Assembly (NCBI GenBank): GCA_003152105.1
Contig: PLZJ01000002.1
Location: 685,140-749,139, forward strand
Length of the DNA: 64,000 nucleotides
From: Candidatus Levyibacteriota bacterium
GTDB lineage: Bacteria > Patescibacteriota > Microgenomatia > Levybacterales > UBA12049
Direction of reading: 5' to 3'
Numbering within the stretch: the stretch's first letter is position 1; the number at the start of each line of letters is the position of its first letter. Shown piece after piece: positions 12,021 through 46,326 of the stretch. A model generated the notes under the pieces. That model did no database searches. It saw nothing but the letters and a program-made list of their open reading frames with translations, and was not told where the DNA came from. The position numbers and the translations under genes are program-made.

Positions 12021-13811
12021 TTATTTAAAGAATTTCTTATATTTTCTACTTCTTCGAAGTGCAAAAACAAGAAGAAGAAAAATTGCAGTTGTTAATGATA
12101 GAAGTTTCCCCAGACTTCTAATAGGTGTGTCTGTAAATGATACAGTAACTTTATATAAACCTTTAGGAAGATTAAAAACTATTTTTCCTACTTCATTTTT
12201 ATTCCAATAAGAAATTGGCAATAAGTTATTATTCTCGCTAACATGCCATCCTGGGAAATATAACGTATTATCTAAGATTTTACTAGATTTTTTTGCATTA
12301 ATTACGTAAATATGATTGACTGGATTTCGAAAAACTTCTGTTATTTGTGCGTTCCCAGAAAGTACCTGTATATGATATTTTGATCTATCAAATCTAAGTG
12401 TTGAAATATGTAACCTTCTTTCTTGAGTAATTTTGAAAAGTGTTGCATTAGATTTATCAGTATATTCTGTATAAAAATCCCAAGCCTGATAATATATGTT
12501 TGGATCAAAAGGTATCATTTTTCTGTTTCCCCAATTTAACCCAGTACTGCCTATCGTAAAGATAATAATGATAATTACAATATACTTTCGATTAAAATTT
12601 GCCAAGACTATACCTGCTATTATCGAACTCAGAAAACTCATAGGAACAAGAAGTCTCCATACAAACAAGAAAGAATCAAGTATATAGATATGATCCCAAA
12701 TGGGTTTGGTAATAGATTGCATCAAAAGAAAATAAATTATGCAAAATATACTAAAAAGTACGGTGATTGCGTACTCCAATTTAGAAAAATATTTATTATT
12801 TCTCCATATCAAGAAAATTGCGGCTATAAACAAGAGCAAATGTGGATACCCAACAATTGTCCGAAGTTCTCCATTATGTCCTTGGAATAAAAAACCATAT
12901 AAAATCGGAGAGAATAAATAATCTTGTATAGGAAAAAATGCACCAGCAGGTCCAACCAAACTATACCATGTATATTTTATTTCAAAAGCTGCTGGTAACC
13001 AATAAAATGACGCAAGCAAAGCACCAATGGTAAGCATTGAAATTAGTTTTATGACAACTCTAAATACTGGTTTTTTTGTAGTCCTTAATTTTACAATGCA
13101 ATAAAAAAACAATATTGGAATTATTGATAGCATGACGCTTGGTTGAGATAAAAATATGCCTGTAAAGCTTAGGCCTCCTAAAACAAAATTAACATAGGTG
13201 TCTTTATCTATACTTCTTTTAACAAACAAGAAAAGTAATGGAATAAAAACAAAAGAAAGGACTTCGCCAACCGAAGACCTAAAATGAAGATCAATTAAAT
13301 GATAAGGTGCGAATAAATAAAAGATACCTGAAAATAGCGCGACTTTTTCATTAAACTCTTCTCGTGTATATATATACATTGTTATGCCTGAAAATATGAA
13401 CGATAGTGCAAGGAGAATTTTTATACTATTTAGATAAGAGAATCCAATAAAATGGAATATGCTTCCAATATAGTAAGGTAAAATATACTGATACATTAAT
13501 GCAGGACATCCATACCCTGCACAAAATTCGTGAGCCCACTGTGGTATTAAAATTCCTGCTTGGAAGTTCTCATAGACACTTCTAAGCAGTATAGTGTGTA
13601 GAGCTAAATCTCCAGCCTGATGTACACCAGGTCGAAATAAGTTAACTACAGCTGGTATAGAAATTACAATTATAAGATACAGAAAATTAATTTTCTTTTT
13701 TGGGTAAATATATGTATAGAACGCAAGTAATACTACTGCTATGAAAGAAAATAAAATTGGTAAAAATACAACTTTAGCAGATGTATTAAGTAATAACGTG
13801 AATAATCCCAT
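12021..13811 (-). CDS. Polytopic membrane protein, putative GT-C glycosyltransferase (YfhO / PTPS-related COG5617-like), paralogue A
   Basis: About 12 TM helices plus a C-terminal soluble domain and final TM. Conserved loop GDLALHT...ILIPQWAHEFCAGYGCPALMYQYILPYYIGSIFHFIGFSYLNSIKILLALSFIFSGITMY. Clear paralogue of 14934-16691. Confidence 0.5.
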   Translation of the reverse strand: MGLFTLLLNTSAKVVFLPILFSFIAVVLLAFYTYIYPKKKINFLYLIIVISIPAVVNLFRPGVHQAGDLALHTILLRSVYENFQAGILIPQWAHEFCAGYGCPALMYQYILPYYIGSIFHFIGFSYLNSIKILLALSFIFSGITMYIYTREEFNEKVALFSGIFYLFAPYHLIDLHFRSSVGEVLSFVFIPLLFLFVKRSIDKDTYVNFVLGGLSFTGIFLSQPSVMLSIIPILFFYCIVKLRTTKKPVFRVVIKLISMLTIGALLASFYWLPAAFEIKYTWYSLVGPAGAFFPIQDYLFSPILYGFLFQGHNGELRTIVGYPHLLLFIAAIFLIWRNNKYFSKLEYAITVLFSIFCIIYFLLMQSITKPIWDHIYILDSFLFVWRLLVPMSFLSSIIAGIVLANFNRKYIVIIIIIFTIGSTGLNWGNRKMIPFDPNIYYQAWDFYTEYTDKSNATLFKITQERRLHISTLRFDRSKYHIQVLSGNAQITEVFRNPVNHIYVINAKKSSKILDNTLYFPGWHVSENNNLLPISYWNKNEVGKIVFNLPKGLYKVTVSFTDTPIRSLGKLLSLTTAIFLLLVFALRRSRKYKKFFK

Positions 13812-13919
13812 TTATCTGCAGAGTATACAATGATTTAAAGTGTAATACAATTTTGCAAGTGAAAGCTTCTTTAGCATAGATTCTTCATAAAATTTATAGT
13901 ACTATATAGCAACTTTTAT

Positions 13920-14972
13920 ATGACTATAGTTTTCTTTTCAAGATATTTTTATCCTCACATAGGTGGCGTGGAAAAACATGTGCTAAACATAAGCAAAGAA
14001 CTAATTAAAAAAAAGCATAAAGTAATTGTTATTACAGAGAAAAGTAATTTCAAAGACAAAGAAATTGAGCAGTATAAAGATATAACAATTTATAGAATTC
14101 CAATAACTACTTCTGAAAAAAGAAAAAAATTTTTAATATGGAAATGGTTATTGCTACACAGAAGTATTATTAGCGATTCAGATATTGTACATGCACATGA
14201 CGTATTTTATTGGTATCTACCATTTAAAATGATATATCCAAGCAAAAAAGTATATATGACAATTCATGGTTATGAGGGTAATAAAATGCCCACCAGAAAA
14301 TCTAAAATTTCTCATAAAATTAATGCAATTCTTTCTTCTGGAAACATTAGTATAGGTTCATTCTTGGAAAAATGGTATGGCATAAAAGCAACATATATTT
14401 CTTATGGTGCGGTAGCAGTACAAGATAAGAAGCCTATCATTTCTTATCCTAAAAAAGGAGTAATAAAAGCATTATTTATTGGAAGATTAGAACCTGAGAC
14501 CGGAATTATGGAATACTTAAAGTTTATCGATTTAATGAGAAAAGATAATATTTCAATTACTATTATTATTGCAGGAGATGGATCATTACGAAATGAAGCA
14601 ATAGAATATGTTAAGGTAAAAAAAATAAAAGCAACATTTTTAGGATTTGTAAATGATCCACAAAAATATTTTAGTAAGGTTGATATTGTGTTTACTTCAC
14701 GATATCTTGGTATATTAGAGTCACTGCTTGGAAAAAAAAGGGTATATGCTTTTTATAATAATGCAATTAAAAAAGATTATCTGCAAATGTCATCGTTTTC
14801 TCAATTTATAAATATCGCCAAATCTATAAAACAAATGAGGTTGTTGCTTTTAAACGATAAAGCAAATGAAAATCTCTATAAAGCATCTATAAATCAAGGA
14901 TATGCATTTGCTTTAGAACAATCATGGCAAAAGTTAACGCTTCTTTATATAAAACTTTGGGGAAAGAAATAA
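13920..14972 (+). CDS. Glycosyltransferase family 4 (GT-B, group 1)
   Basis: N-terminus TIVFFSRYFYPHIGGVEKHVLNISKEL, typical of GT4; 350 aa. Confidence 0.65.
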   Translation: MTIVFFSRYFYPHIGGVEKHVLNISKELIKKKHKVIVITEKSNFKDKEIEQYKDITIYRIPITTSEKRKKFLIWKWLLLHRSIISDSDIVHAHDVFYWYLPFKMIYPSKKVYMTIHGYEGNKMPTRKSKISHKINAILSSGNISIGSFLEKWYGIKATYISYGAVAVQDKKPIISYPKKGVIKALFIGRLEPETGIMEYLKFIDLMRKDNISITIIIAGDGSLRNEAIEYVKVKKIKATFLGFVNDPQKYFSKVDIVFTSRYLGILESLLGKKRVYAFYNNAIKKDYLQMSSFSQFINIAKSIKQMRLLLLNDKANENLYKASINQGYAFALEQSWQKLTLLYIKLWGKK

Positions 14973-16691
14973 ATAGGTATAAAATACAAAAAATAACAAT
15001 ACCGCAATCATACATGTGATGCTAATTATTTGAGAATCTGTTCTGATAAACGTTTGATTATACTCAATACTTACAAGATATAAACCTGCTGGCGCATTAA
15101 AGAATATAATTCCGGGATTCCTATTATTTTGATAACTAATTGGAATTGGTTTGCTATTTATTAGTACTTCCCAATTGGGAAAATAGAGAGTATTTTCTTC
15201 GATATATAAAGGAGTAGCTGCGTTTACTATATACTCATGAATTGTTGAAGTTCGATTTATTTGTTTGATCGTAGCGATACCCTTTAATATATAAAGAGGC
15301 ATTTTAGGGATGTTTTTTTTCCAAACGTTTTTTTGATCAACCCACTTGGGTGCTGATTGAATGTTTCCTTCGCCTTGTATGGTACTAAGTGGAATATTAG
15401 CTCGAAGTGTAGTATCAGTTATTGCTCCAATTGTTCTTCTGTTTCCCCAATTAAATATTGTAATGAGTATGGTAATAACACAAAGAATTACAATAAATGA
15501 TTTGTTTTTATTAACTTTGACTACTATTCCTGCAATTAACGAAGTACAAAGTGTAATTCCTGCTAAGAATCTGTAGGAAAATTGAATATGTTTGAATAAT
15601 GGAAGAATACTATAAATTGGCTGTGAAATAGGGAGCATCATGACAAAAAGTACAAAAAATGAGAGTATCGCAAACAGGTATAAGAGATTTGTTTTTTTGA
15701 TTTTACCTTTAACTAAAAGATATAGTGAATATAAAACAATAAATAATTGAGTATAACCAATAATATAAGAAAGTTGTCCCTTTGGTCCTTGAAATAATAG
15801 TCCATACTTCCAGTTCGAATAAATAAATTCCCAAAAGTTTTGATATGAAACACTAACTACGTTTGATTTTAATGTGAATTGCAATTCATAGAGTAGCGGT
15901 AACCAGTAAAATAATGATAAAAGCAAACCAATTGTTAATGAGAAAAATGCATATGTTAAATATTTTCCATCTCTCTTTTTAGAATATATAAATAATTCAT
16001 ATAGTATCAGTATAGGAAAAACTATTATTGAAACAGCTTGATGAGATAAAATAAGTGCTGCCACTGAGCATGATAAAAATAAGAGATGAATAATACTAGT
16101 TTTTATAGATAATTTTTTCAAAAAATAAAAAACGAAGGGAGATATAGAAAGTGCGGTAACCTCTCCAATATCAACTCTAAAATGCATGTCGACTAAATGA
16201 TAAGGAGCGTACATATAGAATAGAGAGGATGCTATTCCAGACATTTCTCCTAACTCTTCTTTAATCCACAAATACATTCCTATACCAGAGAATATAAAAG
16301 TCATGGCAAGAAGTAGCTTAATGCTTGTAATAAAAGAAAATCCGATCAAATGAAAAAAACTAATCAAATAAAATGGTAAGGGGTATGAAAAATTAAAAAC
16401 TGGATAGCCATATGTAGCATTTAGTAAACCACCCCAAAGTGGAAATATATGTCCTTCTAAAAGTGAAGAATAGAAACTCATTGCCTCATAAACATGCAAA
16501 GAAAGATCTCCACTTTCATATGTTCCAGATCTAAATAAACTTGTAAGTGGCAACAATGATATTACTATCACATAAACTAAAGGATGTATTTTTTTATTTG
16601 GGAGTAATTTTTTAAAAAGAAGGAATCCACTTGCAAGAATAATGACTGAAATGCAACTTACGATAATTAACTTAGTTGATGCTGGAATCAT
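14934..16691 (-). CDS. Polytopic membrane protein, putative GT-C glycosyltransferase (YfhO / COG5617-like), paralogue B
   Basis: GDLSLHVYEAMSFYSSLLEGHIFPLWGGLLNATYGYPVFNFSYPLPFYLISFFHLIGFSFITSIKLLLAMTFIFSGIGMY aligns residue-for-residue with 12021-13811. Same C-terminal architecture. Confidence 0.5.
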   Translation of the reverse strand: MIPASTKLIIVSCISVIILASGFLLFKKLLPNKKIHPLVYVIVISLLPLTSLFRSGTYESGDLSLHVYEAMSFYSSLLEGHIFPLWGGLLNATYGYPVFNFSYPLPFYLISFFHLIGFSFITSIKLLLAMTFIFSGIGMYLWIKEELGEMSGIASSLFYMYAPYHLVDMHFRVDIGEVTALSISPFVFYFLKKLSIKTSIIHLLFLSCSVAALILSHQAVSIIVFPILILYELFIYSKKRDGKYLTYAFFSLTIGLLLSLFYWLPLLYELQFTLKSNVVSVSYQNFWEFIYSNWKYGLLFQGPKGQLSYIIGYTQLFIVLYSLYLLVKGKIKKTNLLYLFAILSFFVLFVMMLPISQPIYSILPLFKHIQFSYRFLAGITLCTSLIAGIVVKVNKNKSFIVILCVITILITIFNWGNRRTIGAITDTTLRANIPLSTIQGEGNIQSAPKWVDQKNVWKKNIPKMPLYILKGIATIKQINRTSTIHEYIVNAATPLYIEENTLYFPNWEVLINSKPIPISYQNNRNPGIIFFNAPAGLYLVSIEYNQTFIRTDSQIISITCMIAVLLFFVFYTYLFLSPKFYIKKR

Positions 16692-16717
16692 GCTGCTATA
16701 ATAACATATAAGAAGTT

Positions 16718-17626
16718 ATGAAAACATCATTTATCGCTACAATTTTTAATGAAGAAAATAATATTAAAGATTTAATAACATCACTTTTAAATCAAACTAA
16801 AAAAATTGATGAAATAATATTTGTTGATAATAATTCTACTGATAAAACGAGAGAGATTATTAAATCTTATAAAAATATTAAGTTACTGAAATATAGTGGA
16901 AATAGATCAAAAGGAAGAAATTTCGGAATTGAGCATGCAAGTGGAGATATAATTTTAGTATCCGATTCAGGATGCATTTTAGATAAGAATTGGGTAAAAA
17001 ACATAACGAGTGGATTTAAAAATGAAGATATTTCAGTAGTATCGGGTTATTATTTGCCGATTTGTAACAGTATTTTTCAAAAATGTCTAGCAACATATAC
17101 CTGTGTTATGCCAGATAAGTTAAATGAGAATACCTATCTTCCATCATCTCGATCCATAGCATTTAAAAAAAGTGCATGGAAAACAATTGGTGGATATCCC
17201 AAAAACCTCTCAACATGTGAAGATTTAATTTTTGCGGTAAGGTTAAAGAAGCATAACTTTCACTTCATTTTAGTAAAAGACGCATTAGTATATTGGCAAC
17301 AAAGGAAAAACTTACTTTCGGCATTTTCACAATTTTTCTCGTATGCAAAGGGAGACGGTAAGGCCAGATATGTAAGAGCTCAAACGCCATATTTATATTT
17401 ACGATATATTGTCGCAGTATTATTGTTTTATTTTTCGTTTAAAGAGCATTTTCTCACTCTATTTATTGTTTTAGGATCACTATATTTTTTTTGGGCAATA
17501 TATAAAAATTATGTCTATATAAAATCTCTATATGCAATTATATATTTACCTTTGCTGCAGTTAACATCAGATATTGCTGTATTGGCAGGGATGACAGTTG
17601 GACTTTTCTTGTCATTTACTAATTAA
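16718..17626 (+). CDS. GT2 glycosyltransferase with C-terminal TM helices (GtrB/ArnC/DPM-synthase-like polyprenyl-phosphate sugar synthase)
   Basis: IATIFNEENNIKDLITSLLNQTKKIDEIIFVDNNSTDKTREI is a GT2 N-terminus. The last roughly 80 aa form 2-3 hydrophobic helices. Confidence 0.65.
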   Translation: MKTSFIATIFNEENNIKDLITSLLNQTKKIDEIIFVDNNSTDKTREIIKSYKNIKLLKYSGNRSKGRNFGIEHASGDIILVSDSGCILDKNWVKNITSGFKNEDISVVSGYYLPICNSIFQKCLATYTCVMPDKLNENTYLPSSRSIAFKKSAWKTIGGYPKNLSTCEDLIFAVRLKKHNFHFILVKDALVYWQQRKNLLSAFSQFFSYAKGDGKARYVRAQTPYLYLRYIVAVLLFYFSFKEHFLTLFIVLGSLYFFWAIYKNYVYIKSLYAIIYLPLLQLTSDIAVLAGMTVGLFLSFTN

Positions 17627-17634
17627 AGCACCTT

Positions 17635-18636
17635 TTATTTAAGTCGCTTTTGTCGGAATTTTTCAATTGGCTTTTCAAAAACAAGATAAATTATAAATGC
17701 AAACATCACTGATACGCATATAAAAAATATGGTAGTTATGCTATTTTGAGATTTAATAACACCAATTTGTATAAAAAAATTAATAAGTAACAAATGACAT
17801 AAATAAATTGGATAAGAAGTTTCACCAATTATTCTGTCTATCGATAACTTATTTGTTAATTTAAATATAAACGGTATTGATACTAAGAAAATTAGTAGAA
17901 AAATCCATTCTTTAAATTTAATAATACTAGTAAAGGTATAATTAAACGGAATATTTGAGTACGAAATCACCAAAGCTAGAATCAATATAAATGTAGATAC
18001 GAGATACTTTTTTGGAAATGTTTTGTGCTTTATAACTTTGTATATTTCATAAGATAACACTCCAAGCAGGAAAAAAATTATTATTTCTGGAAAAAACCAA
18101 TCACCAGCTGGATTGTGATTTAGTCGTAATATTACTTGCACTAAAAAATGAATAAAAAGAGCAATTCCAGTAAGTATGAACAGCATTTTTCTACTTAGTT
18201 TTACAATAAATGGAGCAACAATATAGAAACATAATTCAGAAACTAATGTGTATGCAACTGGTAACGTAAGAAGTTGTCTATTGTCAGTATTTATTTGAAG
18301 GTAATCATTTCTTATAAGTAATGTAACATCACTTAATATATTAAGTGGAGGTTGAGATAATATGTTTTGATGTAGCAATATTATTTCAAAGATATAGGTC
18401 AATAGTAGAATTAACCAATAGGTAGGATATATTCTAAAAAATCTATTTGTGATAAATAATTTATACCCTCCATTCTTTCCTATATATTTTTCATTTAATA
18501 TTAAAGACATGTAAAAACCAGATATAATATAAAAAGCTTTTAATGCGGCATCTCTACCTAAGAATAGTAATCCAAATAGAGGATATGAATGGTGAATAAC
18601 AATCGTAATTGCTAATAAGAATCTGATTAATCCCAT
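17635..18636 (-). CDS. Acyltransferase family 3 (membrane O-acyltransferase)
   Basis: FLLAITIVIHHSYPLFGLLFLGRDAALKAFYIISGFYMS and about 10 TM helices. Confidence 0.55.
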   Translation of the reverse strand: MGLIRFLLAITIVIHHSYPLFGLLFLGRDAALKAFYIISGFYMSLILNEKYIGKNGGYKLFITNRFFRIYPTYWLILLLTYIFEIILLHQNILSQPPLNILSDVTLLIRNDYLQINTDNRQLLTLPVAYTLVSELCFYIVAPFIVKLSRKMLFILTGIALFIHFLVQVILRLNHNPAGDWFFPEIIIFFLLGVLSYEIYKVIKHKTFPKKYLVSTFILILALVISYSNIPFNYTFTSIIKFKEWIFLLIFLVSIPFIFKLTNKLSIDRIIGETSYPIYLCHLLLINFFIQIGVIKSQNSITTIFFICVSVMFAFIIYLVFEKPIEKFRQKRLK

Positions 18637-18648
18637 AAAATGAAAAAG

Positions 18649-19887: not shown

Positions 19888-19929
19888 ATATATCTGTGTA
19901 TATTATACTGTGCATTACCTTTTTAGTAT

Positions 19930-40005: not shown

Positions 40006-41328
40006 CTTTTCTCTAATATAATTCCTAATAAATGTGCCTTGCGAAACATAAGAACCTACATTCGTAATTCCTTTTACAAATAATAGAAAATAAAAAATAG
40101 CCCCTATATTATATAAAACAAACATACACATTAAAGCTATACAAATTTTAACTGAATATTTCTTGATGAGTAATGTAATTATTTGCGATAACCCAATAGC
40201 ATACAGTGGATAGGTACTAATAAACATGCGAATACCAAAGGAAGAGCCTTGTTGCCATCCACTCCAATTCGCTATTAAATACATTTGTAATAATATAAAG
40301 ATGCTAAAAAGTGTTCCTAGGTAAGTTTGTTTTTTTATAAAAAAGAATAATCCAATGAATGCAAGTATTAATAGTGGAGTATATAGTACAAAACCTGTTT
40401 GAGAATTAAATGCTAGTCCAATTACATGAGGATTATTAAAATGAAATTGATTATCAAGCGCGTAAGGGCTTTTAAAGAAAGATCCAGTTATGTTCTTCCA
40501 TATAATCAATTCAGGAATAAATGATACGACAGTGCCAAATATAAGAAGTAAAATAGATATAAAAAATTCGATTATTTTCATTTTTTTAATTGTGATAAGT
40601 CGAGCAATATCAACAAATGGTAGAATTAAAAAAAGCAAATCTTGAGTTCTAATGAGAGCTAATATACCTACTGTAAAGCCAAGAATAAACCATTTAACAT
40701 ATGTTTGTTTTTTATGTGATTTAATAAAATACCAAAGTAAAAATGAGCTTGTTAAAAAAGATAATGGATGCGAGTTCAAAACATCTATTGATCCGTAATA
40801 AAGAAGATTAGTACCTAAAAGTAATGAAATAGATGTAATATACGAAATTGTACTATTTACATACATCTGTAAGGTTTTAATTAAAAAATATATACCTGCG
40901 ATGATAAATAGAATATTTTCTATACCTACAATAAATTGATATAAATCAGAATATCCTGAAAAAGAAAGGCTTTTATTGAATATAGTAAAGAATTTTGTTA
41001 GAAAATCCGCGAAAATAAATCCAAAAACCCAAGTAATTGACGAACCGGGAGGATACTGATACCAAGATATCTTATCAATTTTAAGATGGCTGTTGTTTGT
41101 TGGTTTTAGAGTATTATTATTTTGTGGGCTATAGATGTGTTCTAAGCCGTTGTAGAGATTTAAATCGTGATTAAAGTATAAAGCGTGAGCGTAGCTCCAA
41201 TAATAAATTCCATCTCCATAGATTGCTTGTCCAACAATTCTAAAATGAACATAAAACAATAAAAAAAATACCAAAAACAATGAAATTAACAATTTCTTCA
41301 TGGCTGTATTTATGATAGCATATAACAA
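40000..41328 (-). CDS. Polytopic membrane protein, ArnT/PMT_2-like GT-C glycosyltransferase
   Basis: GDGIYYWSYAHAL ... YPPGSSITWVFGF fits the first-loop motif. The real start may be M10 (MKKLLISLF). Confidence 0.4.
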   Translation of the reverse strand: MLYAIINTAMKKLLISLFLVFFLLFYVHFRIVGQAIYGDGIYYWSYAHALYFNHDLNLYNGLEHIYSPQNNNTLKPTNNSHLKIDKISWYQYPPGSSITWVFGFIFADFLTKFFTIFNKSLSFSGYSDLYQFIVGIENILFIIAGIYFLIKTLQMYVNSTISYITSISLLLGTNLLYYGSIDVLNSHPLSFLTSSFLLWYFIKSHKKQTYVKWFILGFTVGILALIRTQDLLFLILPFVDIARLITIKKMKIIEFFISILLLIFGTVVSFIPELIIWKNITGSFFKSPYALDNQFHFNNPHVIGLAFNSQTGFVLYTPLLILAFIGLFFFIKKQTYLGTLFSIFILLQMYLIANWSGWQQGSSFGIRMFISTYPLYAIGLSQIITLLIKKYSVKICIALMCMFVLYNIGAIFYFLLFVKGITNVGSYVSQGTFIRNYIREKL

Positions 41329-42070
41329 GATGATTTCGGCTATAATTTTATCTCATAATTCAGAGCATTCAATAGAAAAAGCCATTAAAAGCGTTATATG
41401 GTGTGATGAAACTATACTTATTGATGATGATTCAAGTGACAAAACAACAGAAATTGCTAGTAAATATAAAATTATCATACATAAACGTAGATTAAATGAT
41501 AATTTTAGTAACCAAAGAAATTTTGGATTACAAATTGCTAAAGGAGATTGGGTGCTTTTCTTAGATTCAGATGAGATAATTTCTACTAATTTACGAAACG
41601 AAATTGTTACATGCATAAAAGAAGACAAATATAATGGATATTATATTTGTCGAGAAGATTATGTTTGGGATATAAAGTTAAAAAATAATGAAATGGGAAG
41701 AGCTTTTAGTATTAGACTTGCAAAAAGAAACAGAGGACAATGGGAGGGAATAGTTCATGAAAAATGGATAATAAGTGGTAATACTAAAAAACTAAATAAC
41801 CCCATATACCACTATCCGCATAAATCAATTTCTTATTTCATCACAAAGATAAATTATTATACGGAACTTAGATCTAAAGAATTATTTAAACGTAAAAAGA
41901 AAGTTCGTTTTTTAGATATCGCAATTTATCCATTAGTAAAATTTTTTCAAGTATATATCATTAAACATGGTTACGAAGATGGAACAGCAGGTATAATTAT
42001 TTCATTTTTAATGTCATTGCATTCTTTTTTAGTTAGAGCAAAGTTATGGCAATTATGGCAAAACCAATAA
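41300..42070 (+). CDS. GT2 glycosyltransferase (soluble GT-A)
   Basis: ISAIILSHNSEHSIEKAIKSV...DDDSSDKT...FLDSDE (DxD). The likely true start is M11 at 41330. Confidence 0.65.
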   Translation: MAVFMIAYNKMISAIILSHNSEHSIEKAIKSVIWCDETILIDDDSSDKTTEIASKYKIIIHKRRLNDNFSNQRNFGLQIAKGDWVLFLDSDEIISTNLRNEIVTCIKEDKYNGYYICREDYVWDIKLKNNEMGRAFSIRLAKRNRGQWEGIVHEKWIISGNTKKLNNPIYHYPHKSISYFITKINYYTELRSKELFKRKKKVRFLDIAIYPLVKFFQVYIIKHGYEDGTAGIIISFLMSLHSFLVRAKLWQLWQNQ

Positions 42071-43497
42071 AGAATTATTTTATTTATATATCTTTAACAT
42101 TTTTAATATTTATTATAGCCATTGCATTTAATATATCTCCTTACTTACGAGGTCCTGGACCGTACCCACCAGATTGGCGCTGGGCTTATTTGTTTGCTAA
42201 CACTATTTATAAAATTTGGGCTCCATTAATTATATTAGTGGTGATAGGAATTTTGATAAAAATTGTTGAGGAACTTGAATTTAAGACATTAATTAAAAAC
42301 ACTAAAATTATAGTTGTATTATTTATTATTAGTTCATTTTTATTTCAAATTAGCATAGTATATTTCAGTAGATCTGGGATTGGTGTTTTATTACATAGAA
42401 TTATTGATCCAAATTTAAATGGATATTTTACTACTTCTTTGCATATTACAAATATTAATACATTTTTAAGCGGCTATTCTCAAAATGTGTTATCTTTTTC
42501 AATGCACGCACAAGGTCATCCGCCTGGAGCGATATTGCTTTACTATTTACTAAACCAAATTTTTAGCCATTTTACATTATTTAATAAGTTCGTAACTTCA
42601 ATACATATTCAGCACCAAGATGTAAATATAGTATGGTCAAATCTTAATACAAGTCAAAAATCTACTGCAATTTTTAGCATGATATTAATTCCTTTTTTAT
42701 CTTCATTGGTTCTCATACCAATCTATTTAAGCACAAAAGCTCTGTATGATATAAAAACAGCTTTAAGAGCGGTTCAGTTATATATATTTATACCTTCAAT
42801 TGTGTTATTTATTCCAATAAATGATGTATTTTTACCACTGTTTACGATGTTTTCATTCACTTTATTAATTTTTGGATTGAAATCACAAAAGTCCTATTTG
42901 GTTTTTCTGTCTGGAATTATTTTTTCATTAGGATTATTTTTTAGTATTTCTATATTACCTGTATTATTAATAATGTTTCTATTTCTTTATTTGTTTAATT
43001 ATAAAAAAAGTATAGCAGCTGGTCTTGTGTTTTATGTAGCAGGTTTACTAGTTGTTCCATTTATATTACTTTTAAACGCAATAGATCCATTGAAAATGTT
43101 TCTTGTCCTAATGAGCGGGCTTCCTAAAGGGAGAAAGTATAGTACTTGGATTGTTTACAATATATATGATTTTTATATTTTTTCTGGTATTCCAGTTCTT
43201 GTATTATTTTTTATATATTTGTGTAACTCTTGTAAACAATTATTTAAGAAAAAAATTCTAAGAGTAGATCTTTTATTTTTAAGTTTTATATTAATGGTTG
43301 TGCTACTAGATGTTTCAGGTAGTGTTAGAGGAGAGGCTGCAAGAATCTGGATACCATTTTATTCATTTTTAGTAATAATCATATCCAAATTTATAACACA
43401 AGATTTACAAATCAACAAAAAATATTTTATGTTCTTGATTTTACTCCAATGTATTCAAATTATTGTAATGCAAGAATTTTGGGTAACCTTATGGTAA
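42046..43497 (+). CDS. Polytopic membrane protein, hypothetical (GT-C-like?)
   Basis: 483 aa, about 12 TM. PYPPDWRWAY near the N-terminus. Confidence 0.35.
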   Translation: MAIMAKPIKNYFIYISLTFLIFIIAIAFNISPYLRGPGPYPPDWRWAYLFANTIYKIWAPLIILVVIGILIKIVEELEFKTLIKNTKIIVVLFIISSFLFQISIVYFSRSGIGVLLHRIIDPNLNGYFTTSLHITNINTFLSGYSQNVLSFSMHAQGHPPGAILLYYLLNQIFSHFTLFNKFVTSIHIQHQDVNIVWSNLNTSQKSTAIFSMILIPFLSSLVLIPIYLSTKALYDIKTALRAVQLYIFIPSIVLFIPINDVFLPLFTMFSFTLLIFGLKSQKSYLVFLSGIIFSLGLFFSISILPVLLIMFLFLYLFNYKKSIAAGLVFYVAGLLVVPFILLLNAIDPLKMFLVLMSGLPKGRKYSTWIVYNIYDFYIFSGIPVLVLFFIYLCNSCKQLFKKKILRVDLLFLSFILMVVLLDVSGSVRGEAARIWIPFYSFLVIIISKFITQDLQINKKYFMFLILLQCIQIIVMQEFWVTLW

Positions 43498-43588
43498 AGA
43501 AAAGATATATATTACAATTGCTATTTATGCTTTATGCAGTTTTCTTATTAGTATTTTACTTATTTTATTTATACTGCCGTGTAAAAAT

Positions 43589-45142
43589 ATGTATCTATTT
43601 GCCTTAAGTATTGGATTATACTCATATGTCATTTTTGCACTTGGTTTGTTAGGACTAATAAATAAAGTTAGTATTTTTATTGCAACAACACTTTATGTTG
43701 CAGTAGTTCTATATGCCTTAGCTGAGAAAATACACTTTAAAAATTCTTTTCCAATATCTCTAAATAAAAAGAATAATATATACTTATTGCTTTTGAGTTT
43801 GTTAATTTGCGTTAATATAGTTGGTGTATTAGGACCTGAACTTTCTTTTGATTCACTTTGGTATCATTTAGTATTTCCAAAATTATATATTTTCTATCAT
43901 ACAATAACGTATATACCCGGTGGTCTACTTTATTATAGTACTATGCCTAAACTTGGAGAAATGTTATTTATTCCTATTTTGCTTTTTTCAAATGAATTAT
44001 TTGTTAAAGGCATAGAATTTTTATTTGGACTAGCAGTTGTACTATGTCTTTATAAATTTGCGAGGCAATATTTTTCGAGCACCATTTCAATACTTGTTTG
44101 CATAGTTTTTTATAGTAATCTAGTTGTTTCGTGGGAATCTATTACCTCGTATACTGATTTAATTTGGACTTTCTTTAGCATACTTGCTTTTATGTCATTT
44201 ATTTCTTGGAGTAAATCAAAAAATATTAAATTTTTGATATTTTCTTCATTATTAACAGGATTTGCCATAACGACAAAAGTTATTGCGATTGAAGCAATTT
44301 TGCCTTATATTCTCCTTCTTGCAACGCAAAGTAAGTCCTACAAATCTATCTATGTTATTTTATTATATACAGGAGGATGCTTACTTATACCACTACCTTG
44401 GTTTGTATTTTCTTATATGCATACGGGTAATGCATTTTACCCTTTCTTTTCAGAATTATACCCCATTCATATAATTAGGCTTAATTTGTATACAATATTA
44501 AAACTAATACTAACTCCTGCAGATCCTATTTCCCCTATTTATATAATAGTTATTCCATTTATTTTTGCGTATTTTTCAAAATTTAGATCTGAATTTAAAA
44601 TAGCAACAATCTTTGCTTTTACTATATTCTTACTTTGGATTTTTATACCACAAGATGGAGATACTCGCTTCTTAATGCCATATTTACCTGTATTTTCCTT
44701 GATTGTTGGAGAAATACTTTATTTATCGAAAAAAAGTTCATATTTTACCTTGTTAAGTTTTATTATTATTTTAATTTGTATAGTAAGTATTACATATCGT
44801 TCATTAGCAAATATCAAATATATACCATATATTTTAGGAGTTGAGTCTAAAAGTGAATTTTTATTAAACAATTTGAATTTTAAATATGGTGATTTTTATG
44901 ATACTGATGATTACTTTGCAATTCATATACATAAAAATGTTTTGCTATACGGTTTTCATAATTTATATTACATTGATTTTCCTTTTATTGACAATACCTG
45001 GATTAAAAAGGGAGACAAATTTTATTATGTAGCTGTACAACATGGTACAATACCTAGGTTATTCCACAAAGCTACATTAACCTACATAAATAGAGTCACT
45101 GATGTACGGTTATACTTTGTTGGAAAAACAGTTTGGAAATGA
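43589..45142 (+). CDS. Polytopic membrane protein, PMT_2-like GT-C glycosyltransferase
   Basis: LSFDSLWYHLVFPKLYIF ... IPGGLLYYSTMPKLGE first-loop motif; about 13 TM; 517 aa. Confidence 0.4.
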   Translation: MYLFALSIGLYSYVIFALGLLGLINKVSIFIATTLYVAVVLYALAEKIHFKNSFPISLNKKNNIYLLLLSLLICVNIVGVLGPELSFDSLWYHLVFPKLYIFYHTITYIPGGLLYYSTMPKLGEMLFIPILLFSNELFVKGIEFLFGLAVVLCLYKFARQYFSSTISILVCIVFYSNLVVSWESITSYTDLIWTFFSILAFMSFISWSKSKNIKFLIFSSLLTGFAITTKVIAIEAILPYILLLATQSKSYKSIYVILLYTGGCLLIPLPWFVFSYMHTGNAFYPFFSELYPIHIIRLNLYTILKLILTPADPISPIYIIVIPFIFAYFSKFRSEFKIATIFAFTIFLLWIFIPQDGDTRFLMPYLPVFSLIVGEILYLSKKSSYFTLLSFIIILICIVSITYRSLANIKYIPYILGVESKSEFLLNNLNFKYGDFYDTDDYFAIHIHKNVLLYGFHNLYYIDFPFIDNTWIKKGDKFYYVAVQHGTIPRLFHKATLTYINRVTDVRLYFVGKTVWK

Positions 45143-46326
45143 AAAACGTTGCATTCTTATCTTCTTTGTTAGTTCTGACAGTTGCTTTAATTTTAAATCA
45201 ATTTGCTCGAATTCAATTTGGTTCAATTGCTATTTCACTCATAGATATTAGCGTTGTCTTTTTACTCATTAGCAGAGGTAATTTAGTAAAGGAAATTAAA
45301 AAACATCAACTATCTAAATCGATTTTATATTTTGAGGTTGCATGTTTACTATCTTTACTTCTTAATATATTTAATTTTCAATTAGTTTTAATTGTTATTG
45401 GATCATTATATTTTATGCGTTGGATAGTTTATTCGAGTGTTGTTTTCAAAATTAATGCTTATTCTAAACGTCATCAGAGATATCTTGTTAATTCCATGGT
45501 TACTATTGGCGTATTTTTACTTCTCTTAGGATTTTTGCAATATGTTTACTACGATAATTTACAAAATTTGTATTATCTAGGTTGGGATAAACATTTATAC
45601 CGATTATTTACTACTTTTCTAGATCCCAATTTCGCGGGAGCGTTTTTTTCATTATTTAGTGTTTTACTTGCAGAACTCATTTTTGTTAATTTCAATTTAA
45701 AACATACTCTGCGACTTATCGGTTATTCATATTTGTTTACGATTACTTGTTTAGCGCTGTTTCTTACGTACTCCAGAAGTGCATTATTAATGTTTCTCTT
45801 TATTTTTATAATATATTTCTTCTTAAAAAGAAAGCTGCGATTTATTTTTGGCATAGTAATGTTGCTTTTAATTTATTTTATGATTGCATCTACTAAATTT
45901 AGTGTTGAAGGATTTAATTTATTAAGAAGCGTATCTTCAGAAGCACGACTGGCAACAAGTTCCGAAGCTATTACTATATTTTTACACAATCCAATAATTG
46001 GTATAGGATTTAACACATATAGATATGAACAAGTAAAATATGGATATAGGAGTATTAAAGGAGCAAGCATCAGTCACTCTGATGCTGGTGTGGACAATAG
46101 TTTTCTATTCATATTAGCAACAACGGGAATCGTTGGTTTTTTATTTTACTTCAATTTATTGTACGCAATATGCAGTTATTTATATAAGAAAAAAACTTCT
46201 TTCTCAATTATTGCACTTTCTTCATTATTTGGATTATTAATCGATAGCATTTTTATTAATAGTTTATTTTATCCGTTTTTTATGATTTGGTTATGGTGTT
46301 TGATAGGGCTTAGGGATTATATGTAA
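45133..46326 (+). CDS. Wzy_C-domain membrane protein (O-antigen ligase / polymerase / PglL-like O-oligosaccharyltransferase family)
   Basis: LFLTYSRSALLMF and a periplasmic loop between TMs, the Wzy_C signature; about 10 TM. Confidence 0.5.
   Translation: MEMKNVAFLSSLLVLTVALILNQFARIQFGSIAISLIDISVVFLLISRGNLVKEIKKHQLSKSILYFEVACLLSLLLNIFNFQLVLIVIGSLYFMRWIVYSSVVFKINAYSKRHQRYLVNSMVTIGVFLLLLGFLQYVYYDNLQNLYYLGWDKHLYRLFTTFLDPNFAGAFFSLFSVLLAELIFVNFNLKHTLRLIGYSYLFTITCLALFLTYSRSALLMFLFIFIIYFFLKRKLRFIFGIVMLLLIYFMIASTKFSVEGFNLLRSVSSEARLATSSEAITIFLHNPIIGIGFNTYRYEQVKYGYRSIKGASISHSDAGVDNSFLFILATTGIVGFLFYFNLLYAICSYLYKKKTSFSIIALSSLFGLLIDSIFINSLFYPFFMIWLWCLIGLRDYM

Follow-up and report, generated by a model that had tools for sequence, protein, structure and literature searches.

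A conserved, GT-C-rich locus probably devoted to cell-envelope glycan synthesis in a Levybacteria-like bacterium

Glycosylation across the membrane is organized in several ways. The Gram-positive GacI/GacJ/GacK/GacL variant of multi-component glycosylation comprises a soluble GT-A, a small transmembrane (TM) protein, a Wzx-type flippase, and a GT-C (PMC8035078). In the synthesis of mycobacterial lipomannan and lipoarabinomannan, many GT-Cs share polyprenyl-phosphate-mannose (PMC3485146). The locus described here lies closer to the mycobacterial lipoglycan logic than to an iterated 1:1 module of donor synthase and GT-C.

The window, a 64,000-nucleotide stretch of DNA, comes from a metagenome scaffold of 1.139 Mb (ENA) or 1.150 Mb (NCBI), and the host is a Levybacteria-like bacterium of the Microgenomates (CPR/Patescibacteria). 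Between tRNA-Val and tRNA-Thr, 29 ORFs of at least 108 aa fill 35,015 bp at a coding density of 98.1%, and a profile search found no match to housekeeping families among them, much as an earlier note on this DNA had described (about 30 genes, none of them housekeeping). The same note stressed how much of a small genome is committed here, and the locus indeed accounts for 3.05-3.07% of the scaffold (35 kb, or about 3% of the DNA, in a genome of ~1.15 Mb). No GT-C occurs in the 29 flank genes that were scanned or identified via synteny; beyond tRNA-Thr lies the ATP synthase operon, with the epsilon gene starting at 47164. The features are as follows, each protein being referred to below by its first coordinate.

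11941-12015 (+): tRNA-Val(CAC), left locus boundary (ARAGORN and Rfam)
12021-13811 (-): GT-C, PTPS_related/PMT_2 type (PTPS_related 29 bits, cut-off 26.4; PMT_2 27.3, cut-off 26.1)
13920-14972 (+): cytoplasmic GT4 (GT-B) (Pfam Glyco_transf_4, Glycos_transf_1; no TM helix)
14934-16691 (-): GT-C, PTPS_related family, conserved core gene (Pfam PTPS_related 59.4 bits)
16718-17626 (+): GT2 (GT-A) with two C-terminal TM helices, 244-262 and 282-300 (Glycos_transf_2 91.5 bits)
17635-18636 (-): membrane O-acyltransferase, ~9 TM helices (Acyl_transf_3 75 bits)
18649-19887 (-): Wzx-type (MOP family) lipid-linked glycan flippase (Polysacc_synt_3 211 bits)
19930-21045 (+): cytoplasmic GT4 (GT-B) (Glycos_transf_1 89 bits)
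21035-23281 (+): bifunctional GT2::GT-C fusion (Glycos_transf_2 62 bits, PMT_2 36 bits)
23268-25844 (+): YfhO-like GT-C, 858 aa (YfhO 33 bits, cut-off 28.5, C-terminal part only; DUF6541)
25846-26562 (+): SAM-dependent methyltransferase with C-terminal TM anchor, 216-234 (Methyltransf_11, 12, 23)
26569-26895 (+): small 2-TM membrane protein with a conserved INWFTV..YP loop
26877-28430 (+): GT-C of a family unknown to Pfam (clear GT-C fold)
28471-29364 (+): SAM-dependent methyltransferase (Methyltransf_23 65 bits)
29385-30158 (-): soluble GT2 of the polyprenyl-phosphate-sugar synthase type, DPMS/GtrB/ArnC-like (PDB and NCBIfam matches)
30155-31408 (-): NDP-sugar C-methyltransferase-type enzyme (Methyltransf_13 with Zn ribbon, Methyltransf_23, Methyltransf_14)
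31433-32395 (-): SDR, NDP-sugar 4,6-dehydratase/epimerase family (Pfam Epimerase 150 bits)
32535-33800 (+): nucleotide-sugar 6-dehydrogenase (TIGR03026 327 bits, cut-off 189.8; all three UDPG_MGDP_dh domains)
33885-34937 (+): SDR, NDP-sugar dehydratase/epimerase/decarboxylase family (Pfam Epimerase 154 bits)
34938-35924 (+): soluble protein with STELLO-like C-terminal 100 aa (Pfam STELLO 42.7 bits)
35914-36636 (-): soluble GT2 of the polyprenyl-phosphate-sugar synthase type, DPMS/AglJ-like (PDB and NCBIfam matches)
36702-38225 (+): GT-C, PMT_2/TMEM260-like (PMT_2 25.6 bits, cut-off 26.1, E 1.6e-5; TMEM260-like 22.4 bits)
38222-38689 (+): protein with one TM helix and a ~120-aa extracytoplasmic domain (orthologues in relatives)
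38686-40005 (+): compact, TM-only GT-C, 439 aa, of a further family unknown to Pfam (clear GT-C fold)
40000-41328 (-): probable GT-C (hhalign; NCBIfam LA_3751/LA_3752)
41300-42070 (+): soluble GT2 (GT-A), ordinary Leloir type (Glycos_transf_2 75 bits)
42046-43497 (+): probable GT-C, PMT_2-related (own PMT_2 match 17 bits, E 0.007)
43589-45142 (+): GT-C, PMT_2 family (PMT_2 27.5 bits, cut-off 26.1; NCBIfam LIC_10190 family, E 4e-8)
45133-46326 (+): Wzy_C-domain protein, O-antigen ligase/polymerase superfamily (Wzy_C 66.7 bits)
46310-47035 (-): surface protein with Ig-like domains and an N-terminal anchor, TM 25-43 (Glucodextran_B, Big_6, Big_13)
47036-47107 (-): tRNA-Thr(CGT), right locus boundary (ARAGORN)

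GC3 is 0.196 both within the locus and outside it, which argues that the locus is native. Comparison with relatives at protein identities of 35-57%, a check that the earlier note had proposed, finds the locus at the same chromosomal position with its core gene order kept, evidence from sequence that it is native and positionally conserved. Relatives share the flanks, with FtsW, L21, L27, ParB, and LepB to the left of the locus and tRNA-Thr plus the atp operon to its right; tRNA-Val sits at the same locus edge in L086, as does tRNA-Thr in L085 and L087. Module A (26569, 26877, and 29385), module B (35914, 36702, 38222, and 38686), and the right arm (41300, 43589, the Wzy_C protein, and the Ig-like protein) recur in 4-5 relatives at amino-acid identities of 22-57%. 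The nucleotide-sugar cassette is variable among relatives.

By fold or family, ten polytopic proteins are assigned to GT-C, at the top of the eight to ten expected earlier, and enzymes feeding them are encoded alongside. Five score above the gathering thresholds of Pfam (12021, 14934, the C-terminal half of 21035, 23268, and 43589). 26877-28430 and 38686-40005 have no Pfam match, yet display a clear GT-C fold, and the three weaker assignments (36702, 40000, and 42046) draw on sub-threshold or transitive evidence. Profile searches place 7-8 of the ten in GT-C families. The flavours present comprise two PTPS_related proteins, one YfhO-like protein, four or five PMT_2-like proteins, and two or three families unknown to Pfam, a wider range than the two flavours first proposed. 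The motif cited for one of those flavours, DE..Y...PPL.YW, is found nowhere in its literal form; its sole look-alike is the first-loop motif of 36702, DGAEY...PPGYPLY. In all ten proteins a K/R-rich segment precedes one TM helix and then the acidic motif, an order that predicts an outside location for the conserved acidic loop, whose conserved residues are D36/E37 in 26877, D125 in 38686, and D298 in the fusion 21035. The possibility that the polytopic proteins are transporters was rejected, given their placement in GT-C families and their outside-facing loops.

Individual GT-Cs differ in how they are recognized. 14934 (~10 TM helices) has its GD..H loop after a KK-rich loop and a TM helix, and its orthologues in L082, L083, L086, and L091 are 41-48% identical. 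12021 (~11 TM helices) shares 36% identity with it over 556 aa and is, on this likeness, an extra paralogue; relatives have only one copy at this place. Orthologues of 23268 are found in L082 (919 aa) and L091 (942 aa, matching YfhO), and those of 43589 in L085 and L087 are about 41% identical. The matches of 36702 (507 aa, ~9 TM helices) fall slightly under the Pfam cut-offs; its L091 orthologue matches PMT_2. Transitive support makes 40000 a probable GT-C: its family (A3) aligns with that of 38686 in hhalign (probability 89.5%, E 2e-6, 237 columns), it matches the NCBIfam LA_3751/LA_3752 "putative glycosyltransferase" over its full length (E 2e-4), and the GDGIYYW loop past TM1 is invariant in this protein of ~7 or more TM helices. 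42046 (~11 TM helices) is likewise probably a GT-C by transitive support. Its family numbers 1545 representatives at 50% identity, and 18 of 51 aligned homologues match PMT_2 (best 2.8e-9) and one matches STT3; relative to L085 and L087, the gene is an insertion at this place.

The 748-aa protein 21035 is a conserved GT2::GT-C fusion that brings a fifth GT2 domain to the locus. A cytoplasmic GT-A (residues 1-265) leads into a PMT_2-type GT-C from ~270, with one TM helix between the GT2 and the GD..RD loop. Full-length homologues number at least 120, at identities of 32-49%, and alignment indicates that both halves are conserved, their catalytic signatures (N86, D88, E199, E200, D202, and D298) being invariant in 38 sequences.

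Pfam confirms four short GT2s, as first listed, and only 29385 and 35914 are of the proposed polyprenyl-phosphate-sugar synthase type, to judge from their DPMS/GtrB/ArnC-like matches. 29385 matches PfDPMS (5mlz, 3.2e-18) across the entire catalytic domain, GtrB (5ekp, 4.8e-10), and ArnC in the PDB, and PgfS, Dol-P-hexose transferase, ArnC, and PpgS in NCBIfam, all under cut-off; its orthologues adjoin the 26877-type GT-C in L083, L087, and L091. The sole PDB match of 35914 is PfDPMS (8.2e-10, residues 6-214), with AglJ (75 bits) and Dol-P-hexose transferase under the NCBIfam cut-offs, and a divergent GT2 upstream of the 507-aa GT-C also occurs in L083, L087, and L091. GtrB, CsbB, and ArnC carry C-terminal membrane helices, whereas no TM helix is predicted in 29385 or 35914. 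The other two look like ordinary Leloir GT-As of the TarS/TarP/GmaR/heparosan-synthase type. The best PDB matches of 16718 are TarS, TarP, and GalT1, not DPMS, and 41300 matches GmaR (1.7e-12), heparosan synthase, TarP, and TarS; in L085 and L087 the 43589-type GT-C is preceded by an orthologue of 41300, and probably so in L083, whose copy extends past the end of the locus. Sequence does not indicate a lipid-phosphate glycosyltransferase identity for 16718, 41300, or the GT2 half of 21035. 16718 may also load sugar onto a lipid phosphate and is a possible third synthase, given that its orthologue forms a fusion with Wzx in L082 and with a PMT_2 GT-C in L086. With about 2-3 donor synthases for ten GT-Cs, the locus therefore fits "few donors, many transferases" and not the 1:1 two-step module, iterated many times, that had been proposed.

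Two small membrane proteins are candidate partners of the GT-Cs. 26569, with orthologues in L083 and L087, is always encoded upstream of 26877; it has no Pfam or NCBIfam match and no sequence similarity to GacJ, and is a candidate accessory subunit. 38222, with no Pfam match, always lies between the 507-aa and 439-aa GT-Cs (orthologues in L082, L083, L086, L087, and L091) and is a candidate accessory or acceptor-binding subunit. These two proteins and the STELLO-like 34938 were absent from the earlier list.

Pfam also bears out the two GT4s, the Wzx and Wzy_C proteins, the nucleotide-sugar dehydrogenase, the two SDRs, and the three SAM methyltransferases listed earlier. 13920 has orthologues at the corresponding position in L082, L083, and L086; L082 and L083 carry that of 19930 directly upstream of the fusion gene, and L086 and L091 carry it at other places in the locus. 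In NCBIfam, the flippase 18649 matches the MOP flippase (186 bits) and TuaB (130 bits) under their cut-offs, and it has orthologues in L082 (fused), L083, L085, and L086. Within the sugar cassette, 32535 is closest to the UDP-ManNAc dehydrogenase equivalog (under cut-off), 31433 matches dTDP-glucose 4,6-dehydratase at 136 bits (under cut-off), 33885 has only generic NCBIfam matches, and 30155 has orthologues in L085 and L091. Since every NCBIfam equivalog match is far under cut-off, the sugar or linkage cannot be named. Residues 226-325 of 34938 align to positions 1-102 of the 387 in the STELLO profile, the start of its glycosyltransferase domain, and no NCBIfam match was found for this protein. 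Methyltransferase 25846 has orthologues of 49-53% identity in L082, L083, and L087. One of the two Acyltransferase_3 proteins previously counted is 17635-18636; the other, at 2853-3887, lies outside the locus amid housekeeping genes. Among the window proteins scanned there were no priming phosphoglycosyltransferases (WecA/TagO/MraY-like or WbaP-like), LCP ligases, chain-length regulators, or GtrA- or ArnE/F-type flippases.

The preferred reading, to which we give a probability of about 0.62, is a native cell-envelope glycan locus in which a Wzx/Wzy_C-type pathway is joined by several multi-component transmembrane glycosylation systems. It most likely makes and decorates a cell-surface sugar polymer on the external face of the membrane. 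The cassette (32535, 31433, 33885, and 30155) would supply activated sugars of unusual kinds, for example a uronic acid and a C-methyl deoxy sugar. At the cytoplasmic side of the membrane, the GT4s 13920 and 19930 and the Leloir GT2s (41300, the GT2 half of 21035, and perhaps 16718) would build a lipid-linked primer to be flipped by Wzx 18649, and 29385 and 35914, possibly with 16718, would load sugars onto undecaprenyl phosphate. Once flipped, these few lipid-linked sugars could be used by up to ten GT-Cs, with 26569 and 38222 as accessory subunits, to lengthen the glycan and add its branches outside the membrane. The Wzy_C protein 45133 would polymerise or ligate the product, and methyltransferases 25846 and 28471 and acyltransferase 17635 would decorate it. 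Possible acceptors are wall polysaccharide, lipoglycan, and protein. From the genes present it is reasonable to propose a methylated and acylated glycan of several sugars; alternatively, the 29 genes may serve several products rather than one.

At the right end, 45133 has ~9 TM helices, no PDB sequence match, and orthologues in L085 and L087, where the Ig-like protein 46310 also keeps its place, always paired with Wzy_C. Since the Ig-like and Wzy_C genes stay together in relatives, the conserved unit reaches 47035, whereas the earlier note had ended the locus at 46326.

Between the tRNA-Val and tRNA-Thr genes, which bound the locus (ARAGORN and Rfam), 29 ORFs of 108-858 aa fill 98.1% of 35,015 bp. 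Pfam scans place none of the 29 proteins in a housekeeping family, in agreement with the earlier note, which had described a block free of housekeeping interruption. Rfam and tandem-repeat scans of the locus return only the two tRNAs and two trivial repeats. Both flanks are housekeeping throughout: on the left a class I tRNA synthetase (presumably valyl-tRNA synthetase), FtsW/RodA, L21, L27, ParB, and signal peptidase, and on the right the ATP synthase operon, DnaE, GatA/B, and MurT/GatD. The genome-sized scaffold measures 1,139,039 bp (ENA, metagenome) or 1,149,594 bp (NCBI contig), of which the locus occupies 3.05-3.07%. A further ORF, 11860-12210 (+; 116 aa, TTG start), overlaps tRNA-Val and the 3' end of the gene at 12021-13811 and is almost certainly not a gene. 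Genes are named below by their start coordinates.

11941-12015 (+), tRNA-Val(CAC)
12021-13811 (-), GT-C protein, PTPS_related
13920, GT4 glycosyltransferase
14934-16691 (-), GT-C protein, PTPS_related
16718, short GT2 glycosyltransferase
17635, Acyltransferase_3 protein
18649, Wzx/MOP flippase
19930, GT4 glycosyltransferase
21035-23281 (+), GT2::GT-C fusion
23268-25844, YfhO-like GT-C protein
25846-26562 (+), SAM methyltransferase
26569, small protein with two TM helices
26877-28430, GT-C protein
28471-29364 (+), SAM methyltransferase
29385, short GT2 glycosyltransferase
30155, SAM methyltransferase
31433, SDR
32535, nucleotide-sugar dehydrogenase
33885, SDR
34938-35924 (+), STELLO-like protein
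35914, short GT2 glycosyltransferase
36702, GT-C-like protein
38222, small protein with one TM helix
38686-40005, GT-C protein
40000, GT-C-like protein
41300, short GT2 glycosyltransferase
42046-43497 (+), GT-C-like protein
43589, GT-C protein
45133, Wzy_C protein
46310-47035 (-), Ig-like anchored protein
47036-47107 (-), tRNA-Thr(CGT)

Ten of these proteins are GT-C-like (seven firm, one borderline, and two probable). The earlier view of the polytopic proteins as GT-C enzymes is thereby upheld by Pfam families, predicted folds, and transitive family support. Five exceed a Pfam gathering cut-off: 12021 (PTPS_related and PMT_2), 14934 (PTPS_related, 59 bits), the C-terminal half of fusion 21035 (PMT_2, 36 bits), 23268 (YfhO, 33 bits against a cut-off of 28.5), and 43589 (PMT_2, 27.5 bits). 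The YfhO match is partial, pairing residues 632-823 with the last 185 of 835 profile positions. Just under the cut-offs lies 36702, with 25.6 bits for PMT_2 (26.1 needed) and 22.4 for a TMEM260-like family (24.2 needed). A hydropathy scan, whose crude threshold misses some helices, finds 7-11 TM helices in each of the ten.

Two families were resolved by fold comparison alone. Homologues were collected for 26877-28430 (72) and 38686-40005 (53); few carry a source name, and those that do come from Levybacteria, Parcubacteria, or Patescibacteria. AlphaFold2 models built from the alignments are all-helical bundles of high confidence (pLDDT 91.0 and 91.3, pTM 0.91 and 0.93, respectively) that fold as GT-C, with structural matches including PimE, AftA, AftB, AftD, and EmbA and with ArnT among the top three for both. 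A comparison of PDB sequences with the two family profiles gave nothing meaningful, and 26877-28430 and 38686-40005 thus represent sequence-orphan GT-C families. For 36702, 40000, and 42046, single-sequence hhalign against the 38686 family was uninformative and family alignments were required. A five-sequence alignment of the 40000 family matches the 38686 family with 89.5% probability (E 2e-6, 237 columns), and 40000 aligns over its full length with the NCBIfam LA_3751/LA_3752 "putative glycosyltransferase" model (E 2e-4). An exhaustive search found 1545 representative relatives of 42046 at 50% identity; 18 of 51 aligned homologues match PMT_2 (best 2.8e-9) and one matches STT3, and the similarity to the 38686 family is weak (hhalign 17.6% probability). 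No locus GT-C matches the Mpt, Emb, or Aft families in Pfam or NCBIfam. The DE..Y...PPL.YW motif formerly ascribed to the first loop does not occur in its literal form; 36702 alone has a look-alike, DGAEY...PPGYPLY.

The orientation of the conserved loops was predicted from the sequence around them. All ten GT-Cs carry a K/R-rich segment, then a hydrophobic helix, and within a few residues a conserved Asp/Glu, which by the positive-inside rule would place the acidic loops outside. Invariant or near-invariant acidic residues include D36/E37 in the 26877 family, D125 in the 38686 family, D30 in the 40000 family, and D298 in the fusion; the 42046 family has a conserved E/D in a PEW loop. In the fusion, the GT2 domain uses a nucleotide sugar and must lie in the cytoplasm; between this domain and the GD..RD loop there is exactly one TM helix, and the loop is therefore predicted to lie outside. 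Conserved loops were not predicted to be cytoplasmic in any of the ten, consistent with the outward-facing chemistry that had been proposed.

The donor side of the pathway is smaller than had been supposed. All four short GT2 genes are present as claimed, but only 29385 and 35914 fit the role of donor synthase that the earlier note gave to the four. Over its whole catalytic domain 29385 aligns with P. furiosus Dol-P-Man synthase (3.2e-18), Synechocystis GtrB (4.8e-10), and three ArnC structures in the PDB, and its NCBIfam matches, below the equivalog cut-offs, are PgfS, Dol-P-hexose transferase, ArnC, and PpgS. The sole PDB match of 35914 is DPMS (8.2e-10), again across the whole catalytic domain, with AglJ its NCBIfam match, likewise below cut-off. 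These matches suggest that 29385 and 35914, neither of which has a TM helix, are of the polyprenyl-phosphate-sugar synthase type. The best matches of the other two are non-lipid GT-A enzymes (GmaR, heparosan synthase, TarP, TarS, and SunS for 41300; TarS, TarP, and GalT1 for 16718), and both are likely to be ordinary Leloir GT-A enzymes, although 16718 has two C-terminal TM helices, as do GtrB and CsbB. The GT2 half of the fusion belongs to a WbbL/MftF-like group. With two, at most three, candidate donor synthases for ten GT-Cs, the idea of a one-to-one module iterated many times falls away. The adjacency of DPMS-like GT2 genes to GT-C genes supports the use of polyprenyl-phosphate or -diphosphate sugars as GT-C donors, which remains a prediction from gene order.

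The remaining families named in the earlier note (two GT4s, the Wzx flippase, the Wzy_C protein, the dehydrogenase, and two SDRs) are present, and 32535 scores above the TIGR03026 cut-off (327 bits). Three SAM methyltransferases are likewise confirmed, one of which, 30155, is of the C-methyltransferase type (Methyltransf_13/14). The other two, the generic 25846 and 28471, have a predicted C-terminal TM helix (residues 216-234 and 264-282, respectively), so they may act at the membrane on lipid-linked intermediates. One of two Acyltransferase_3 proteins claimed for the locus, 17635, lies inside it; the other is probably the Acyl_transf_3 protein (128 bits) at 2853-3887 (-), ∼8 kb outside among housekeeping genes, between an FKBP isomerase and GreA. 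Flippase 18649 matches Polysacc_synt_3 in Pfam (211 bits). The Wzy_C domain of 45133 scores 66.7 bits, with an RfaL match at only E 1e-3 and no match in a PDB sequence search; this domain does not tell a polymerase from a ligase or an O-oligosaccharyltransferase. In the STELLO-like protein, the last 100 residues align to the first 102 of 387 profile positions, and the N-terminal 225 residues have no Pfam or NCBIfam match. The Ig-like protein has a low-complexity Ser/Asn/Thr-rich linker and a faint N-terminal match to the NCBIfam "CPR pilus system RbmA-like protein PamR" (34 bits, cut-off 300).

Small membrane proteins 26569 and 38222 are conserved and belong to the locus. With two and one TM helices, respectively, and no match to any family, they were rejected as GtrA-type flippases; 26569 is a candidate small TM partner for the GT2s that have no TM helix of their own. 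No scanned window protein matches the GtrA family, Wzz/PCP chain-length regulators, or LytR_cpsA_psr (LCP ligase). An initiating phosphoglycosyltransferase (Glycos_transf_4 of the MraY/WecA kind, or Bac_transf) was not found among the 29 locus proteins and scanned flank proteins, and a priming enzyme may be encoded elsewhere in the 1.15 Mb genome. Together with equivalog matches that all fall far below NCBIfam cut-offs, these absences argue against a complete pathway in the window.

Relatives show which parts of the locus travel together. Full-length homologues of the fusion number at least 120, at 32-49% identity. Those with a name, on which the taxonomic placement rests, come from Candidatus Levybacteria, Parcubacteria, and the "Patescibacteria group," and the GT2 and GT-C catalytic signatures of the fusion are both invariant across 38 homologues. 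The surroundings of several homologues were fetched (loci L082, L083, L085, L086, L087, and L091), and their ORFs were matched back to the window. These loci sit between the same chromosomal anchors. On the left are FtsW/RodA, L21, L27, ParB, and signal peptidase, joined in L086 by tRNA-Val; on the right, L085 and L087 have Wzy_C and the Ig-like protein, followed by tRNA-Thr(CGT) and the atp operon. The shared left arm runs GT4, PTPS_related (-), 16718-type GT2, Wzx, GT4, fusion, and sometimes a YfhO-like gene. The middle comprises the small 2-TM protein, a 26877-type GT-C, and a 29385-type GT2, followed by a DPMS-like GT2 (-), a 36702-type GT-C, the 1-TM protein, a 38686-type GT-C, and a methyltransferase. 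On the right, sometimes after a 40000-type gene, come a 41300-type GT2, a 43589-type GT-C, Wzy_C, and the Ig-like protein, which always pairs with Wzy_C. The neighbor pairs 26877/29385 and 35914/36702 are kept in L083, L087, and L091. As a control, at most three locus proteins were found by tblastn in each of 80 loci from other phyla; these loci came from a contig scan with the fusion protein, which almost all matched through the generic GT2 domain only.

Other parts vary. The YfhO-like gene is missing from L083, and its orthologue in L091 likewise matches YfhO. Paralogues 12021 and 14934 share 36% identity over 556 aa; with only one such gene at this edge in L082, L083, L086, and L091, 12021 looks like a lineage-specific duplication beside tRNA-Val. 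In L085 and L087, 42046 is missing and no gene separates the 41300-type GT2 from the 43589-type GT-C that follows it. This absence, and a family much larger than those of the other orphan GT-Cs, suggests that 42046 is a later insertion. L087 and L091 are two views of one contig, JADMIO011429210.1 (GCA_016307145.1), whose locus is of a similar scale, spanning at least 30 kb with nine GT-C-like genes, and has a different sugar cassette (DegT aminotransferase, GFO/IDH/MocA oxidoreductases, cupin, and C-methyltransferase). The L085 cassette differs again and includes an acetyltransferase, DegT, and an RmlD-like gene. Conserved transferases combined with a varying supply of sugars are the pattern of O-antigen and capsule loci. 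Natural fusions add functional links: at L082:6703-8880 a single 725-aa protein joins a 16718 orthologue (49% identity, TM helices included) to a Wzx orthologue, and at L086:15038-17581 an 847-aa protein joins a 16718-type GT2 to a PMT_2-type GT-C, a domain that has no BLAST match among the window GT-Cs. The two connect the 16718-type GT2 functionally with a flippase and with a transferase that faces outward.

The most likely product of the locus is one cell-surface glycan, or a small number of them, made along a hybrid route. The nucleotide-sugar cassette would supply modified sugars, from which GT4 and Leloir GT2 enzymes would make a lipid-linked primer inside the cell, to be flipped by Wzx. 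The DPMS-like GT2s, perhaps with 16718, would provide C55-P-sugars, and the ten GT-Cs would lengthen the glycan and add its branches on the outside of the membrane. The product would then be polymerized or ligated by Wzy_C, with decoration by the methyltransferases and acyltransferase. What the analysis shows are gene families, folds, signals of topology, and linkages kept in relatives; all catalytic steps and their order, the donors used, and the acceptor are inferred. Of the earlier proposal, the observation itself stands with minor corrections, as do GT-C identity and outward-facing chemistry; one-to-one iteration and four donor synthases do not.

Four other explanations were considered. 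The 35 kb could be shared by several independent glycan systems in one "glycan island," for example a Wzx/Wzy polymer, a teichoic-acid-like decoration, and protein glycosylation, a reading less likely than the hybrid route. The strand layout (∼14 same-strand runs and 13 strand switches among 29 genes) would suit such a patchwork, as would modules that are separable, shuffled, or missing in relatives (the YfhO-like gene, 42046, and the NDP-sugar cassette in L091 and L085), and L. lactis has three GT-A/GT-C pairs acting on three different polymers (PMC8035078). However, the same two anchors and the core order persist across relatives at 35-57% identity, and all modules have a single Wzx and a single Wzy_C between them. 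It is unlikely that the locus is mainly a protein O-glycosylation machine, in which PMT_2/TMEM260-like GT-Cs would put single sugars from polyprenyl-phosphate donors on Ser/Thr of the neighboring Ig-like protein, pili, or an S-layer and Wzy_C would be a PglL-type oligosaccharyltransferase. Several GT-Cs do fall in PMT_2, 36702 also resembles TMEM260-like protein O-mannosyltransferases, Wzx weakly matches the NCBIfam "O-glycosylation flippase" (116 bits, cut-off 720), and the Ser/Thr/Asn-rich Ig-like protein with its faint PamR match always sits beside Wzy_C. Yet PMT_2 is broad and includes ArnT-like transferases for lipids and polysaccharides as well; of the PMT-type families the locus proteins match only this generic one, with no Pfam match to PMT (PF02366) or MIR and no canonical DE loop motif; and ten GT-Cs, two GT4s, and a polymerase/ligase-like protein far exceed what Ppm1 and Pmt require.

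A membrane-anchored lipoglycan resembling mycobacterial PIM/LM/LAM, in which a GT4-primed glycolipid would be modified by an acyltransferase, flipped, and then polymerized and branched by GT-Cs alone, is similarly improbable. The gene set (two GT4s, one Acyl_transf_3, two DPMS-like GT2s, and ten GT-Cs) parallels PimA/PimB', an acyltransferase, Ppm1, and PimE/MptA-C/Emb/Aft, and the priming phosphoglycosyltransferase needed by an Und-PP-linked route was not found in the window. On the other hand, Wzx and Wzy_C point to an Und-PP-linked repeat-unit route, and both GT4s (13920 and 19930) miss the PimA, PimB, and MshA equivalog cut-offs, matching generic NCBIfam models only. It is highly improbable that the polytopic proteins act as transporters or permeases, or that this stretch is a recent foreign island or an assembly chimera. 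One 26877 homologue is labeled "MFS family permease" (JGI) and another "DUF3488" (NCBI), but the 26877 and 38686 models fold as GT-C with no transporter among their top fold matches. The locus (12021-47035) has tRNA genes at both ends and a raw GC of 0.280 against 0.324 in the flanks, but GC3 is 0.196 both inside and outside; the gap is confined to codon positions 1 and 2 (GC1 0.345 against 0.447) and so reflects amino acid composition rather than foreign origin. Identical GC3 and conserved synteny indicate a native locus, and the same locus with the same flanks in independent assemblies, along with an identical scaffold in ENA and NCBI, contradicts a chimera.

A stronger form of the hybrid route is more speculative, and we put it forward tentatively as rather unlikely: Levybacteria-like CPR would assemble their main surface glycan almost wholly on the outward side of the membrane, through an assembly line of ∼10 GT-Cs. 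It would include at least two GT-C families new to current databases and a GT2::GT-C enzyme that makes or extends a lipid-linked intermediate inside and transfers outside, and it would amount to an independent, compact, one-locus analogue of mycobacterial LM/LAM/arabinogalactan biosynthesis. If so, the variable sugar cassette would give these episymbionts a strain-specific surface identity governing host attachment and phage recognition.

In mechanism, the closest known systems are the Gram-positive multi-component transmembrane glycosylation systems (PMC8035078; PMC11127046). Multi-component systems include GtrA/GtrB/GtrC of Shigella and Salmonella phages, CsbB/GtcA/YfhO and GtlA/GtlB of Bacillus, Staphylococcus, and Listeria, CsdAB/CD/EF of Lactococcus, and GacI/GacJ/GacK/GacL of S. 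pyogenes (PMC8035078, PMC11127046). In S. pyogenes, the GT-A enzyme GacI, aided by the small membrane protein GacJ, makes C55-P-GlcNAc, which the Wzx-type GacK exports and the GT-C GacL transfers (PMC8035078). The locus shares with these systems a DPMS/GtrB-type GT2 gene beside a polytopic GT-C (29385-26877; 35914-36702/38686), predicted outward catalytic loops, and a gene for a Wzx-type flippase. A soluble GT2 encoded with a small membrane protein recalls GacIJKL, and the L082 and L086 fusions recall GacI/GacK/GacL. A review suggests that compact GT-Cs may require separate acceptor-binding partners (PMC8035078); 38222, with one TM helix and a ∼120-aa outside domain, always adjoins the compact GT-C 38686 and could by analogy be such a partner. 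Unlike those systems, this locus sets two or three candidate donor synthases against ten GT-Cs, one of which is permanently fused to a GT2; no GtrA-type flippase was found in the window, and the small proteins are unrelated in sequence to GacJ. Known bacteria carry one to three GT-A/GT-C pairs, usually dispersed.

Mycobacteria and corynebacteria build PIM/LM/LAM and arabinogalactan with Ppm1 and the GT-Cs PimE, MptA/B/C, EmbA/B/C, and AftA-D. The overall plan of the locus, few donors for many GT-Cs, most resembles that of LM/LAM and arabinogalactan assembly in mycobacteria (PMC3485146). By analogy, very few polyprenyl-phosphate sugars would feed many GT-Cs that polymerize and branch the glycan outside, after GT4s and an acyltransferase have acted at the inner face, and several mycobacterial GT-Cs are among the structural matches of the 26877 and 38686 models. 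The phyla are unrelated, however, and no family-level orthology was detected; this is a likeness of logic rather than membership. The mycobacterial genes are spread genome-wide, in contrast to a contiguous 35 kb here with Wzx and Wzy_C, and no decaprenyl-phosphate-arabinose genes (DprE1/2 and UbiA) were seen.

Other systems also share features with the locus. As in Wzx/Wzy O-antigen, capsule, and secondary wall loci, Wzx, Wzy_C, GT4/GT2, and NDP-sugar genes are clustered, and the cluster is fixed between housekeeping flanks while its sugar cassette varies between relatives. Unlike such loci, it has no priming phosphoglycosyltransferase, Wzz/PCP, or LCP ligase found in the window, and its GT-Cs outnumber its Leloir transferases, the reverse of the typical O-antigen or capsule locus. 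ArnC/ArnT modify lipid A with L-Ara4N, and Ppm1/Pmt carry out actinobacterial protein O-mannosylation. The ArnC alignment of 29385, the ArnT fold matches, and PMT_2 membership recall these pairs; however, ArnA, ArnB, and ArnD are absent, the organism appears to lack lipid A, there is no MIR domain, and all equivalog scores are far below cut-off. Lacking PMT/MIR architecture, Mpt/Emb/Aft orthology, GtrA, and GacJ, and with only a partial YfhO match, the locus is not a member of any specific characterized family. Its distinctive features are the concentration of ten GT-Cs in a single contiguous and conserved stretch of a 1.15 Mb genome, at least two GT-C families that Pfam and NCBIfam do not know, a family of fixed GT2::GT-C fusions, and soluble DPMS-like synthases. 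A literature search of incomplete coverage found no relevant paper on CPR/Patescibacteria GT-C clusters or GT2-GT-C fusions; the Lipocone and Lake Biwa papers among its results do not bear on them.

CPR/Patescibacteria are ultra-small and mostly uncultured, and for many of them a life attached to host cells is assumed. To our knowledge, their surface covering is essentially unknown. A conserved locus that takes up 3% of a 1.15 Mb genome and is rich in outward-facing glycosyltransferases is a strong candidate surface determinant, which by extension may set host recognition, phage susceptibility, and immune-like interactions. Its building blocks are all of known kinds, and the glycan chemistry is read from gene families. 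For enzymology, the locus offers two sequence-orphan GT-C families with confident structural models (26877-28430 and 38686-40005), a widespread GT2::GT-C fusion, and natural GT2-Wzx and GT2-GT-C fusions that link specific partners. The mycobacterial design of few lipid-linked donors and many GT-Cs may have arisen or persisted in a very different, reduced-genome lineage.

Three observations concern nearby genes. A GatD-like (CobB/CobQ-type glutamine amidotransferase) and MurT-like pair lies at 60356-62394 (-); GatD/MurT is a lipid II amidation system typical of Gram-positive-type peptidoglycan. A stand-alone GGDEF protein (diguanylate cyclase) is encoded in this reduced genome at 56530-57309 (-), between DnaE and GatB. 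In L086, the interval from tRNA-Val to the first glycosyltransferase gene holds an insertion (L086:4626-6669) that encodes a sigma-54-activator-type AAA+ protein and an uncharacterized 260-aa protein.
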